A stretch of 64,000 bases of DNA from Escherichia coli (GCF_013315695.1 NZ_CP054354.1); one strand, 5' to 3'. Positions 37,928 to 41,989 are shown, counted from the stretch's first letter. Numbers and translations: made by a program. The notes: generated from the sequence alone by a model not told the origin.

Positions 37928-40900
37928 TCATCGGCCGGGGCTGTGGGATTGTGCCTGTTGCAGAGTTTTTTCCTGCCTGTCCTCCGCCTTTTGGCTGTCA
38001 GACCACTCTTTCCAGGTCTGCTCAAAACCCAGAGAGCGGAAAAGCTTGTCCGGTTGCTCTTCCGGTTTGTGGATGGCGGCAAACAACGGGGAGTCCTGTT
38101 GCTTCAGGTGAAACTGCATTATTTGTGGGGACGGACGCTGATGATTATTCTCATCATGGTTAACAGCTTCACCGTAACCGGCAAACTGCAGACCGTTATC
38201 CGTCAGGGCATTGATAACCAGCTGACGGTTGTCAGCTGACGGGGTGGCCAGTGCCGGGTAAAGGGTGCCGTTCAGGCGGACCACGCCCTGCAGATGATCA
38301 TCTGCGCTGTGGACCAGCAGAAGATTCAACTGACGATTGTCCTTATCGGCAGAGGCGATGGCTGGTATCAGTTCATTGGGGGCATTACCAGCGAGGGGGA
38401 GTCGCATTGATTGATCCTGAGGTGCTGATGCAGGTTGCCTGTCTTCACCAATGTACAGATTATTGGGAGGATTTTTGGGGGAGCGAACTTCCTGCATTAT
38501 CTGTGGCCAGTGTTGTTGCATCTGTAACATCACCTGGCTGAATGTTGCCATCGGAAACTCCAGGGTATGCTGACCCGCATGAGGTTGGTCATTATTAACG
38601 GTAATGCCGTTACTGACCGGGGTTATGGCCCAGATATTACGGATACGATCCCGCGTTTCACCGGACAGCCGGAATGTTTCTCTCGCCTGCAGTGTCAGTG
38701 TGACGGGGTCACCCTTCTGATGGTTTTTGACCAGTTCTTCCAGGCCGTTTCCCCAGTATTCCCGTTTGCCACTGCGGTTGGTGAGCTCCACAAAAAAGCA
38801 GCGCCCTTTTCCGGGCGCATACTCTTTTTCTCCGTAGTTTGTCAGGACGGCAGTCACACTTTCACCGGGGCTGAGCTTGCCGGGCGGCTCTTCCACCGGT
38901 GTGTCGGGTTGCTGCGGCTGTGCACTGACAGGGGCTTTTTCTGGCGCAGACGACGGGGCGGCGGGGTGTTCCGGTCTGTCGGCCCGGGGGGCTTCAGCTT
39001 TTGCCGTGACCGGCGCTTCCGGATGCGGTGTTTCAGCCGTACTGCCTGCTGTTTGTTCAGCCTCTGCCTTCGGTGACACAGGGGGAGCCGGTTGGGCCAT
39101 TGTTGTCTCTTCCGGTGACTGGCGGTTGAGTTCCGGCGTGGGTCTGTGGGTGACAATGGCATCATGCGCCATCTCTTTTTCCTTGCGGAGTTTTTCCAGT
39201 GCTGCCCGCTGGGCCGGGAGTTTCATGCGAACCTTGATGTCGTATTCGACAATCAGCTGCATGGCTTTTTGCTTAAAGGCATCACTGCCGGTCAGCTCGA
39301 TAACGCCGCCATAGAAGTTGGTGGCCACAGCAAGGGCAGCCAGGACCTTTTTGTCATCCGCGCTGGCGCCATCCACCATTTCGAGACAGTAGAGTCTGTC
39401 CAGGAAGGCGGGTTCACCGTCAACGCTGTAGAGCGCAGTCCTGTCGGGAAACTCTTTGTGTGTAAGATTTTTAAGGATCTCGTCCAGGTTGTGCCGCTGC
39501 GGACTGTCGGGACGGCGGGGTGCAAAGATAATCGTGTCCGGTTCCGCTGACGATGTGTCTTCCGGGCTGGTTTCCGGTGGTGATGGTGGTGCGACCTCCT
39601 CTGTTGCTGTTTCAGCCTCCGTGGGCTTTTTCTCCTGAATAACGGAAGGTTCTGAGGTGCGTGATTTCACACCGGTCAGAAAACGGCGCAGACGGCTGAA
39701 AAGCGATGGCGTTTCAGGGCGGGCTGCTTCATTCGCTGTGCTGGTCTCAGTGGCGGACACAAGACGCTCTTCCTGCAGTTTATCTTCAGCCGTCGGTTCA
39801 GCGGTGGCCTGCCGGACTGGCTGAGTTTCTGCAGGTTCAGAAGGTGAGGCTGTTTCTGCTGTGCCGGTGTTGTGAACAGCAACCGTGGCATCGGCATTGA
39901 GCTCCTCAGCGGGTGCGTTCCTGTTGTCATCGGTGATGTCAGAGGAGTGCTCTGCGCCGGTCTCAGCGGCAGACGCAACGCTCTTTTCCTGTGCTTTATC
40001 TTCTGCCGTCAGTTCAGTGGTCACCTGCTGAACTGGCCGCATCCCGGCCGGTTCAGAAACTGTGTTTGTCTCCGCGTTGTCGGTGTTGTGAACAGTGGGG
40101 GCCCCCGGAGTGTCAGCGTTGAGATCTTCCGCAAATGCGCTCCAGTCGTCAGCGCTGGCCATGGAAACCTGCACTTGTTCTTCAGACTGCGTTGTGGTGG
40201 TGTGCTGTGTCCCGGCCGCGTCGGAGAGGGCGGTTTCCGGTGTGTCTTCACTCCGGGGATGTTCTTCTGCCTGCGTGCTCTGGTTGTCAGCGGTGGTGGC
40301 AGAGGCATTTTCTTCACCGGTATCAGCGGTAGCCACAGAGGCATTTTCTTCTCTGGTATCGGCAGCGGAAACAACGTTCTCGTGTGGTTTATCTTCTGCG
40401 GTCGGTTCAGTGGTTGCCTGCTGCACGGACTGCATCCCGGCAGGTTCAGGAAGCGCTCCTGTTTCTGCTGTGTCGCTGTTGTGAGCGGTGTCTGTACCTG
40501 TGGCGTCTGTATTGAGGTCTTCCTGGTCGCCAGCGGTAGGCACAGAGGTATTCTCTGTGCCGGTATCAGCGGCAGACGCAATATTCTCCAGTGGTTTATC
40601 CGGGGATAACGTCTCCGCAGTTACTGATTGCAGGGATGCATAGGCGGCATAGTCATCTTCATATGCCTGGTTTTCTGTATCGTCGGAGTGGGTGTCATAA
40701 GGCGTATCCTGTGTCGCCAGCTCCGTTTCCGGGGCTGTGCTCTGTCTGTTTTCAGGGGACATTTGTGGCTTCTCATCTTTTACCGGTGTGAATATCAGGT
40801 TGTCGATCACGACAGCCTCACGATGGTCGGCAGTGTCACTGTTGGGTGTGGGGATACCGATATGTTTTAACTGTGCATTCATGGCATTCTGAAAGTTGTC

Positions 40901-41989
40901 CCGTCCCCGGCTGGCGTCCAGGTCATTGAAATCGGTCAGTCCCTGTGCTTTTTCCGCCTCCGTAAAGGCCGGAATAATGACTTCGCCATTCGTGACTTCT
41001 GCGGCCTTTGTTGCACTAAAAACCCCTTTGTTAATTTCCCGTTGATGATCGTTGTCGGCACAGAAGACAAAGGGGCTGTCAGTCCAGATTTGGCGGGCAT
41101 TTTCTGCCACGGCAATCATATTGCTGGCATCAACTGTCATCAGAACCGGAAGGCCGGTTGCTTCGTGCAGGGAGGCGGCAGTAGCGTAACCTTCCGCAAA
41201 TAACAGGGGGCGGCCATTTTCCGGGGTTCCGAAGGTGAACCAGTTGCCGGTTTTCTCGGAGTCTTTCAGAATGCGGGCATCCTTCCCGCCGGTGACCGGA
41301 ATACGCTGGTACGAACGTATTTCTCCCCGGCCGTTGCTGAAGGGAATAACCAGCTCATTTTTATTGTTCAGCCGCACGCCAGGCGCGGCCCGGATGCCCT
41401 TGCGCGTCAGGTATTCATGTGCTGTTGCCTGTGGCAACCTGTTAATATAGGAGCGGGCATAGCCGGCCTGTTTGTTATACTGTTGCTGCAGTTTACGAGC
41501 GTTATCATCGCGCTGTTGCTGAGCGAATGCCCGCAGATGCAGTCTGGCCAGAGGATCGTGTTGTTCTCCGCCGGAAAATACCCAGTTTGTGGGACTGTCA
41601 TCGGCGCTCCGGTAGTCGCGGTACCAGCCGGCGGGACGACCATCAAGATAGGCCCTGTATGCGCCACTTTTGGCCCCTTTTTTGTCATCCCGGGTGGCCA
41701 CTCTGTGTATGGCTCCGTCCATCTGTGGCAATCCCTGAATAACCAGCCCGGCGTTTTCCAGGACCTGAGCAAATTCAGTGACCGGATCGCCGGCATCCAT
41801 CGACAGTTCCTGTGGCCGGGGTAACCAGCGCTCCAGCAGTGAAAGTTCGGTACCCGCCCGGGCATACCAGAGCTTTTTTTCTGGATCCCATGCGACAGCT
41901 TTGCGGCCATTTAACGGGGGAACTGCATTTTTTACGGCTTCTGTCTCCTCAGGCGGGACAGCAAGCCAGGTTCGATATCTGGACTTCAT
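37928..41989 (-). CDS. sog: Sog-like conjugative DNA primase (Toprim N-terminal domain, repeat-rich acidic linker)
   Basis: 1353 aa; LLFAEGYATAASL and VFCADNDH Toprim-like motifs; located between traK and traL as sog is in R64. Confidence 0.7.
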   Translation of the reverse strand: MKSRYRTWLAVPPEETEAVKNAVPPLNGRKAVAWDPEKKLWYARAGTELSLLERWLPRPQELSMDAGDPVTEFAQVLENAGLVIQGLPQMDGAIHRVATRDDKKGAKSGAYRAYLDGRPAGWYRDYRSADDSPTNWVFSGGEQHDPLARLHLRAFAQQQRDDNARKLQQQYNKQAGYARSYINRLPQATAHEYLTRKGIRAAPGVRLNNKNELVIPFSNGRGEIRSYQRIPVTGGKDARILKDSEKTGNWFTFGTPENGRPLLFAEGYATAASLHEATGLPVLMTVDASNMIAVAENARQIWTDSPFVFCADNDHQREINKGVFSATKAAEVTNGEVIIPAFTEAEKAQGLTDFNDLDASRGRDNFQNAMNAQLKHIGIPTPNSDTADHREAVVIDNLIFTPVKDEKPQMSPENRQSTAPETELATQDTPYDTHSDDTENQAYEDDYAAYASLQSVTAETLSPDKPLENIASAADTGTENTSVPTAGDQEDLNTDATGTDTAHNSDTAETGALPEPAGMQSVQQATTEPTAEDKPHENVVSAADTREENASVATADTGEENASATTADNQSTQAEEHPRSEDTPETALSDAAGTQHTTTTQSEEQVQVSMASADDWSAFAEDLNADTPGAPTVHNTDNAETNTVSEPAGMRPVQQVTTELTAEDKAQEKSVASAAETGAEHSSDITDDNRNAPAEELNADATVAVHNTGTAETASPSEPAETQPVRQATAEPTAEDKLQEERLVSATETSTANEAARPETPSLFSRLRRFLTGVKSRTSEPSVIQEKKPTEAETATEEVAPPSPPETSPEDTSSAEPDTIIFAPRRPDSPQRHNLDEILKNLTHKEFPDRTALYSVDGEPAFLDRLYCLEMVDGASADDKKVLAALAVATNFYGGVIELTGSDAFKQKAMQLIVEYDIKVRMKLPAQRAALEKLRKEKEMAHDAIVTHRPTPELNRQSPEETTMAQPAPPVSPKAEAEQTAGSTAETPHPEAPVTAKAEAPRADRPEHPAAPSSAPEKAPVSAQPQQPDTPVEEPPGKLSPGESVTAVLTNYGEKEYAPGKGRCFFVELTNRSGKREYWGNGLEELVKNHQKGDPVTLTLQARETFRLSGETRDRIRNIWAITPVSNGITVNNDQPHAGQHTLEFPMATFSQVMLQMQQHWPQIMQEVRSPKNPPNNLYIGEDRQPASAPQDQSMRLPLAGNAPNELIPAIASADKDNRQLNLLLVHSADDHLQGVVRLNGTLYPALATPSADNRQLVINALTDNGLQFAGYGEAVNHDENNHQRPSPQIMQFHLKQQDSPLFAAIHKPEEQPDKLFRSLGFEQTWKEWSDSQKAEDRQEKTLQQAQSHSPGR
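39700..40620. repeat. 3-4 imperfect ~300-bp tandem repeats inside sog
   Basis: Recurring DNA blocks encode a repeated acidic T/E/A/D-rich module (...EPAGMQSVQQATTEPTAEDK...). Confidence 0.6.

Follow-up and report, generated by a model that had tools for sequence, protein, structure and literature searches.

A stretch of 64,000 nucleotides from Escherichia coli (GCF_013315695.1, NZ_CP054354.1), hereafter called the window, carries a gene for a Sog-like primase, in which a preliminary description had noticed a long acidic linker with internal repeats. The question raised by this locus is what these repeats are, and whether they serve the protein, its transport, or the DNA itself. An open reading frame (ORF) scan found the gene exactly where it had been placed, at 37928..41989 on the minus strand. 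It encodes a protein of 1353 residues (SogL) and, on the basis of gene order and homology, is identified as sog of an I-complex plasmid of the IncB/O/K/Z type. We consider it likely that the linker of this protein was lengthened by ancient in-frame duplications and acts as a flexible, polyanionic tether. All coordinates given below for the parts of sog refer to the minus strand.

Identity and distribution of the gene

SogL is 100% identical to a protein annotated as "LPD7 domain-containing protein" (WP_059332171.1) in pMB9108_2, a plasmid typed as IncI1/B/O and MPF_I. The gene order at this identical plasmid locus (L001) is traJ, icmT/traK, sog, traL, and DotI/traM; in a synteny comparison, the position of sog between traK and traL was the same as in IncI1 plasmids. 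SogL could also be aligned end to end with the 1255-residue Sog of an IncI1 plasmid (L004), with 52.6% identity over residues 3-1353. When a second IncI1 Sog (L007) was compared, the identity was 73% over residues 3-422 and 60.6% over residues 818-1353. The middle of SogL is only ~27% identical to the 1255-residue protein. Because of the traK-sog-traL synteny, the end-to-end homology, and an in-frame internal start at the position of the SogS start (described below), the ORF is assigned as the sog orthologue of I-complex plasmids. The cautious term "Sog-like" can thus be replaced by a stronger one.

The DNA of sog is at least 99% identical to that in 252 plasmid records (100% in pMB9108_2). 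Diverged sog DNA was found in 1788 records, nearly all of them conjugative MPF_I plasmids of Escherichia, Shigella, Salmonella, and Klebsiella. Of 5426 complete E. coli genomes, 336 have the type of linker that bears the repeats, each time on a plasmid; ~440 plasmid records carry it. In addition, the PK-repZ pseudoknot of I-complex replicons is located at 63840-63988 (plus strand; Rfam, 189 bits, above the gathering score). Both an I-complex plasmid (PMC10286972) and pESBL (PMC4288162) are known to need sogLS for conjugation, and sogS is a named allele locus in sequence typing of IncI1 plasmids (PMC7341882).

Repeat units of the linker

A repeat search detected a 164-nt segment in three copies (39751, 39967, and 40360), spaced by 216 and 393 nt. 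When the gene was compared with itself by blastn, the best off-diagonal match reached 109 bits (E = 2e-26); 100 codon shuffles averaged 22.6 bits and did not exceed 30.1 bits. The corresponding protein self-match scored 68 bits, and the maximum for the shuffles was 31.6 bits. It should be mentioned that self-blastp of the whole protein returned the identity match only; the protein repeats were seen with a segment-wise search. In addition, Tandem Repeats Finder (minimum score 30) reported nothing in the repeat region, because the large units are just 62-77% identical in DNA, with no more than 16 nt of exact sequence in common, and because their period is irregular. The repeat structure of the Sog linker is genuine, as had been supposed. 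As far as the searched literature shows, it is undescribed.

The array extends over 39704-40693 and consists of three full units of 68-74 residues (204-222 nt) and one partial unit, numbered here along the protein. R1 (residues 433-489; 40523..40693) is partial and degenerate, and was recognized by DNA alignment and by a hidden Markov model (HMM) of the unit (positions 13-67, E = 3e-7). The full units are R2 (residues 490-563; 40301..40522), R3 (residues 621-694; 39908..40129), and R4 (residues 695-762; 39704..39907). Their HMM scores of 121, 129, and 99 bits, respectively, are circular, since the model was built from these same three units of the window; for R2, support apart from the HMM comes from self-BLAST and from the protein and DNA alignments. 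R2 and R3 are separated by a spacer of 57 residues (564-620; 40130..40300), which ends in DWSAF(AEDL). The possibility that this spacer is a fifth, degenerate unit was rejected (unit HMM, E = 8.4). The unit spacings, including that of a nested short repeat described below, are 216, 393, and 36 nt, all of which are multiples of three.

The location and the number of copies (three to four) in the preliminary description were thus about right, whereas the unit is smaller than the ~100 residues or ~300 bp proposed there, namely ~70 residues or ~216 nt. The word "tandem" applies in part: R1 and R2 abut, as do R3 and R4, but the array as a whole is not strictly head-to-tail owing to the 57-residue spacer between R2 and R3.

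Two further ORFs lie in this region and may be by-products of the repeat composition. One is an antisense ORF of 245 residues (39872-40609, plus strand) wholly inside the repeats, and the other is an out-of-frame ORF of 186 residues (40021-40581, minus strand).

Composition and predicted disorder of the linker

The linker as a whole comprises residues 410-817 (39539..40762) and is markedly acidic, as had been noted: aspartate and glutamate make up 20.6% of its residues and lysine and arginine 4.9%, giving a net charge of -64. Its mean hydropathy of 0.392, compared with a boundary value of 0.470, places it on the disordered side of the charge-hydropathy plot. In an AlphaFold model of residues 410-1353, the predicted local distance difference test (pLDDT) score was below 50 over residues 410-814 except for three short helices, whereas the folded domains on the C-terminal side had scores of 75-93. 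The linker is therefore predicted to be disordered, in agreement with the earlier suggestion of a disordered spacer.

The three helices are YEDDYAAY (residues 443-450; YEDDY at 40649-40663), DWSAFAEDL (residues 615-623; DWSAF, residues 615-619, at 40133-40147), and LFSRLRRFL (residues 763-771; LFSRLRRF at 39680-39703). They are the sole predicted helices of the linker. In the cross-lineage alignment, all three are kept in the linkers of IncI1 Sog and of a third lineage (L009), which are otherwise unalignable with that of SogL; of the second motif, DWxxF is kept in both.

Apart from these motifs, it is composition that seems to be maintained. Between orthologues, the ratio of nonsynonymous to synonymous substitution rates (dN/dS) was 0.44-0.61 in the linker, compared with 0.09-0.27 in the folded segments (primase, LPD7 region, and C-terminal part). 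The Sog linkers of all lineages are 314-517 residues long, 19-21% acidic, and ~2-5% basic, with net charges of -53 to -81. The IncI1 Sog linker, which is ~27% identical and does not contain the units, is alike in composition and charge.

A net charge of -64 over 408 residues, recurring in all lineages, might also mean that the linker mimics nucleic acid. It could then fold back onto the DNA-binding surfaces of Sog as an autoinhibitor until single-stranded DNA (ssDNA) is met, or could act as a decoy for DNA-binding defence proteins of the recipient. The acidic tails of SSB-type proteins and the anti-restriction DNA mimics offer a likeness, and the C-terminal domain of SogL has a putative resemblance to OB-fold (oligonucleotide/oligosaccharide-binding fold) ssDNA binders. 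Furthermore, Sog acts in the recipient when restriction and SOS responses are triggered (PMC8406263, PMC7213743). This line of thought is, however, purely inferential. No rigid structure is predicted for the linker, whereas the classical anti-restriction proteins that mimic DNA are folded. The plasmid family has, moreover, dedicated ardA and ardB genes (PMC10286972). Mimicry of nucleic acid is considered improbable.

Age and constraint of the units

R2 and R3 share 55% amino acid identity, with 1.01 synonymous substitutions per site (dS) and a dN/dS of 0.29; for R3 and R4, the corresponding values are 50%, 0.81, and 0.41. Overall, the paralogous units are 50-55% identical, with dS of 0.8-1.0 and dN/dS of 0.28-0.41. 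The duplications must be old, because of these dS values and because the units share no more than 16 nt of exact sequence. They predate the divergence among the B/O/K/Z alleles (dS ~0.4), and their age is roughly comparable to that of the split from IncI1.

The distribution of the unit was examined with the unit HMM. The unit is present in every allele typed as B/O/K/Z/I-gamma that has this linker; it was not detected by the HMM in the IncI1-type Sog alleles L004, L007, and L008, nor in the third lineage (L009). Among 5.8 billion proteins, the repeat region matched only 29 clusters, mostly fragments, and all those with a named source were from E. coli or Shigella. A sequence search of the PDB gave matches at chance level only.

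In the 25 distinct units examined, the cores E[DE]LNxD, AET, EPA, PVQQ, TAEDKxQE, and SAx[DE]T were kept without exception. This raises the possibility that the repeats are a multivalent array of acidic short linear motifs that bind a partner, either the cytoplasmic domain of TrbA or an ssDNA-handling protein of the recipient cell or the plasmid, so that more units would lead to more efficient export or loading of Sog. The cores were kept despite a dS of ~1, and the three short helices are conserved even in the IncI1 and L009 linkers. The window encodes TrbA, the DotM homologue of the plasmid (DotM_C, E = 1.9e-46). DotM of Legionella recruits Glu-rich Dot/Icm effectors and binds Glu-rich peptides from them (PMC5802825, PMC7280309), and SogL is exported in hundreds of copies (PMC8406263). 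On the other hand, IncI1 Sog is exported without these units, and dN/dS values of 0.3-0.6 are typical of disordered regions that are constrained in composition only. The known Glu-rich signals are C-terminal and not internal, and each conserved helix occurs once in the linker instead of being part of every unit. A motif array is therefore regarded as rather unlikely. A more specific form of it, in which the units and the three helices together make up a recruitment array for the complex of TrbA (DotM-like) and TrbC, and the B/O/K/Z lineage has amplified an internal signal, is unlikely as well; if it were true, the number of units would set how many Sog molecules are exported per mating.

Length variation and recombination

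Length variation was assessed in spread samples at an identity of at least 95%, comprising 46 plasmid records and 40 E. coli genome records; the two collections overlap. The same 1185-nt linker was present in 83 of the 86 rows. Sog alleles range from 1336 to 1463 residues. The allele of pOV-CH82_scFOS (1463 residues) has an extra block of 120 residues that corresponds to a spacer plus a unit. Its two halves resemble two different allele types, which fits unequal exchange. The junction of the extra block was found in five plasmids.

A shorter repeat is nested at the end of R2. It is a tandem duplication of 36 nt (12 residues) at 40280..40351, EENASVATADTG / EENASATTADNQ, detected by the repeat search with a spacing of 36. 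One copy is present in NZ_CP145695 (L016) and in NZ_OZ547214, two in the window, and three in CP088704 (L010), and these variants sit in genes that are otherwise ~99% identical. The 36-nt repeat behaves as a small, in-frame, copy-number-variable locus within sog.

In addition, the alleles L003-L015 are mosaic: their segments differ in closest relative, and certain types of unit are not at the same position in every allele. In the comparison with L014, for example, dS was 0.01 in the C-terminal half, 0.22 in the primase, and 0.39 in the linker, and the pattern was different in the comparison with L005. This mosaicism indicates recombination within the gene between plasmids.

Such variants might be taken to mean that the repeats have their role in the DNA, as a recombination hot spot or contingency locus with frequent length variants or as protein-binding or promoter sites, and that the protein repeats are a by-product. 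Copy variants do exist (the 120-residue block in five plasmids, and the gain or loss of 36 nt in three records), and units have changed position among the mosaic alleles. However, the large units are not the head-to-tail, near-identical copies with frequent change in number that characterize a variable-number tandem repeat or a contingency locus. They share at most 16 nt, and Tandem Repeats Finder sees no array. The units differ at third codon positions (dS ~1) but are conserved as protein (dN/dS ~0.3), all spacings and variants are in frame, and a single linker length prevails in the sampled rows. A function of the repeats at the DNA level was rejected on the codon-position pattern; this explanation is largely refuted and is considered very improbable.

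The linker is thus length-variable between lineages (314-517 residues), as the preliminary description had proposed. Its further proposal that the region is prone to recombination is weakly borne out: the allele with an extra unit in five plasmids speaks for it, and so does a recent change by one copy, which is confined to the 36-nt repeat, whereas the short sequence identity between the units and the near-constant length speak against it. The repeat region recombines over evolutionary time but is not fast-changing, and length variants are rare.

It should be mentioned that many of the database proteins that match sog are tagged "partial" and come from contigs of 1-3 kb. Short-read assemblies thus seem to break frequently within sog, possibly because I-complex plasmids with the same flanks and different linkers are present in one cell. 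The linker may also explain the frequent partial Sog proteins in draft assemblies.

N-terminal primase and internal start

The N-terminal part of SogL begins with a DUF5710 domain (residues 6-57; 41819..41974; Pfam PF18974, E = 1.2e-8), followed by the primase catalytic region (residues 145-381; 40847..41557), which matched the DNA primase family PHROG 2249 (E = 1.1e-54) and includes a Toprim domain at residues 264-364. When the N-terminus was scanned alone, Toprim_3 (PF13362) scored 28.0 bits on the latter residues, just above the cut-off of 27.2. In full-length Pfam and NCBIfam scans of SogL, Toprim was missed, and Pfam gave DUF5710 and LPD7 only. The Toprim motifs are nevertheless recognizable as EGYATA (residues 266-271), DNDH (residues 312-315), and DFND (residues 353-356), and these, together with the two profile matches, confirm the N-terminal Toprim primase noted previously. 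EGYATA is said to be the defining motif of I- and P-type plasmid primases. For Sog of ColIb-P9, primase activity and transfer of the protein into recipients are established (cited in PMC8406263, PMC7213743, and PMC6112013).

The linker starts at an in-frame methionine, Met410 (40760..40762), which aligns with Met412 of the 1255-residue IncI1 Sog, the residue at which the 844-residue SogS of that protein starts (PMC6112013), and is the predicted start of a SogS of 944 residues. All 14 alleles compared have ATG or GTG at this position. A SogS product beginning with the linker is probably made.

LPD7 and C-terminal domains

On the C-terminal side, the linker is followed by a folded LPD7 domain (residues 819-944; 39158..39535), with pLDDT of 84-90. 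The Pfam match (PF18821) covers residues 852-935 and has a score of 38.3 bits (cut-off, 27; E = 1.3e-9). A second disordered linker, rich in proline, alanine, and glutamate, extends over about residues 945-1040 (38870..39157), as judged from its composition and pLDDT below 50; in the AlphaFold model, the disordered segment covers residues 944-1034. The remaining part (residues 1041-1353; 37931..38869) is a beta-rich domain predicted with pLDDT of 75-93 over residues 1044-1349, whose putative fold resembles that of OB-fold ssDNA binders.

This last domain is common to Sog and the MOBQ4 relaxases of small mobilizable enterobacterial plasmids: over residues 1045-1335, SogL has 45% identity to the C-terminus of one such relaxase (P0122; E = 1e-70), which represents a cluster of 3802 member sequences. 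The homology of MOBQ4 relaxases to SogL has already been noted (PMC6856555). The common domain may be a module recognized by the I-type secretion system. In Pantoea cypripedii, a stand-alone protein of 545 residues (P0099; on a 1.4-Mb contig) corresponds to Sog residues 822-1353 with 49% identity. It comprises LPD7, the Pro/Ala linker, and the C-terminal domain, and has neither the primase nor the acidic linker.

Other features of the window

Genes related to conjugation are found elsewhere in the window. trbA (15030-16373, minus strand) encodes a DotM_C domain, trbC (11628-13928, minus strand) the coupling protein, and nikB (8687-11407, plus strand) a MobA/VirD2-like relaxase. The presence of these three genes means that the plasmid has a DotL/DotM-type coupling complex. 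Other Rfam matches above the gathering score were the sok antitoxin RNA at 20832-20988 (plus strand, 125 bits) and the AgrB antisense RNA at 17245-17332 (minus strand, 48 bits).

Proposed role of the linker

SogL would thus consist of five parts: DUF5710 with the Toprim primase, the acidic linker of ~400 residues, LPD7, the Pro/Ala-rich linker of ~95 residues, and the beta-barrel C-terminal domain. By analogy with IncI1 Sog, SogL and SogS would both reach the recipient by way of the type IV secretion system of the I type (Dot/Icm-like), and there the primase would prime complementary-strand synthesis on the incoming single strand. In this plasmid lineage, ancient in-frame duplications of the ~70-residue unit seem to have lengthened the linker, leaving three full copies and one partial copy. 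Selection would keep mainly the physical traits of the linker, that is, its length, its content of ~20% acidic residues, its charge, and its lack of structure, together with a few short helical motifs. Such a linker most likely acts as a flexible, DNA-repelling tether between the primase and a C-terminal module that would bind ssDNA and serve in export. The primase could then reach along the ssDNA with the C-terminal module staying attached, and the linker might also make it easier for Sog to unfold on its way through the secretion system. From time to time, a block of 120 residues would be gained or lost by unequal exchange between units or alleles, and 12 residues by slippage at the nested 36-nt repeat.

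Two observations fit this proposal less well. The Shine-Dalgarno sequence before Met410 is weak (GAGAAG, compared with GAGG in IncI1). In addition, the units have kept their cores with a dN/dS of ~0.3, which represents more constraint than a pure spacer needs, so that the units may carry specific binding motifs.

The linker represents a lineage-specific, repeat-built segment, predicted to be disordered, in which length and charge are conserved and sequence is not. Sog belongs to the small group of proteins that are natural substrates of a conjugation machine, and sog is needed for transfer of I-complex resistance plasmids; the repeat-built linker offers a simple design for studying how a protein of ~150 kDa threads through a Dot/Icm-like system. 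At the same time, Sog is a known protein of a very common plasmid family, and repeats in its linker are a minor feature, ordinary for a multidomain secreted protein, which leaves the knowledge of Sog unchanged.

Comparison with known systems

The closest known systems are SogL and SogS of the IncI1 plasmids R64 and ColIb-P9 (1255 and 844 residues, respectively; PMC6112013). They have the same place in the tra operon, a start codon at the SogS position, and the same order of domains, namely DUF5710-Toprim primase, acidic linker, LPD7, Pro/Ala linker, and C-terminal domain. The differences lie mainly in the linker, which has about 407 residues here and 331 in IncI1 Sog, with identity as low as ~27%, and in which the ~70-residue unit was detected here only. 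In IncI1 Sog, the YEDY and DWxxF motifs follow each other in the opposite order. Furthermore, nuc, which encodes a nuclease of the phospholipase D family, is present between traK and sog in IncI1-type loci (L004 and L007), whereas it is absent here (window positions 41990-42052).

Among more distant primases, Pri of the IncM plasmid pCTX-M3 is likewise encoded between traK and traL and may give two products, with 23-30% identity to SogL (PMC6112013). The primases of IncI1 plasmids and RP4 are both transferred to recipients (PMC6112013, PMC7213743). TraC1 of RP4 has its Toprim domain at the C-terminal side and a DUF1738 in addition (PMC7213743), whereas the Toprim domain of SogL is N-terminal; Pri and TraC are likened to it here by description.

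The MOBQ4 relaxases have a MobA/MobL relaxase domain in place of the primase, and they have neither the acidic repeat linker nor LPD7. Polyvalent (LPD-domain) proteins, a concept reportedly introduced for proteins of conjugative elements and phages, are like SogL in being large and multidomain, in having LPD7 and low-complexity linkers, and in being delivered with DNA. Sog differs from that class in its small number of domains and its experimentally established role, and a repeat-built linker is a trait of this Sog and not of the class.

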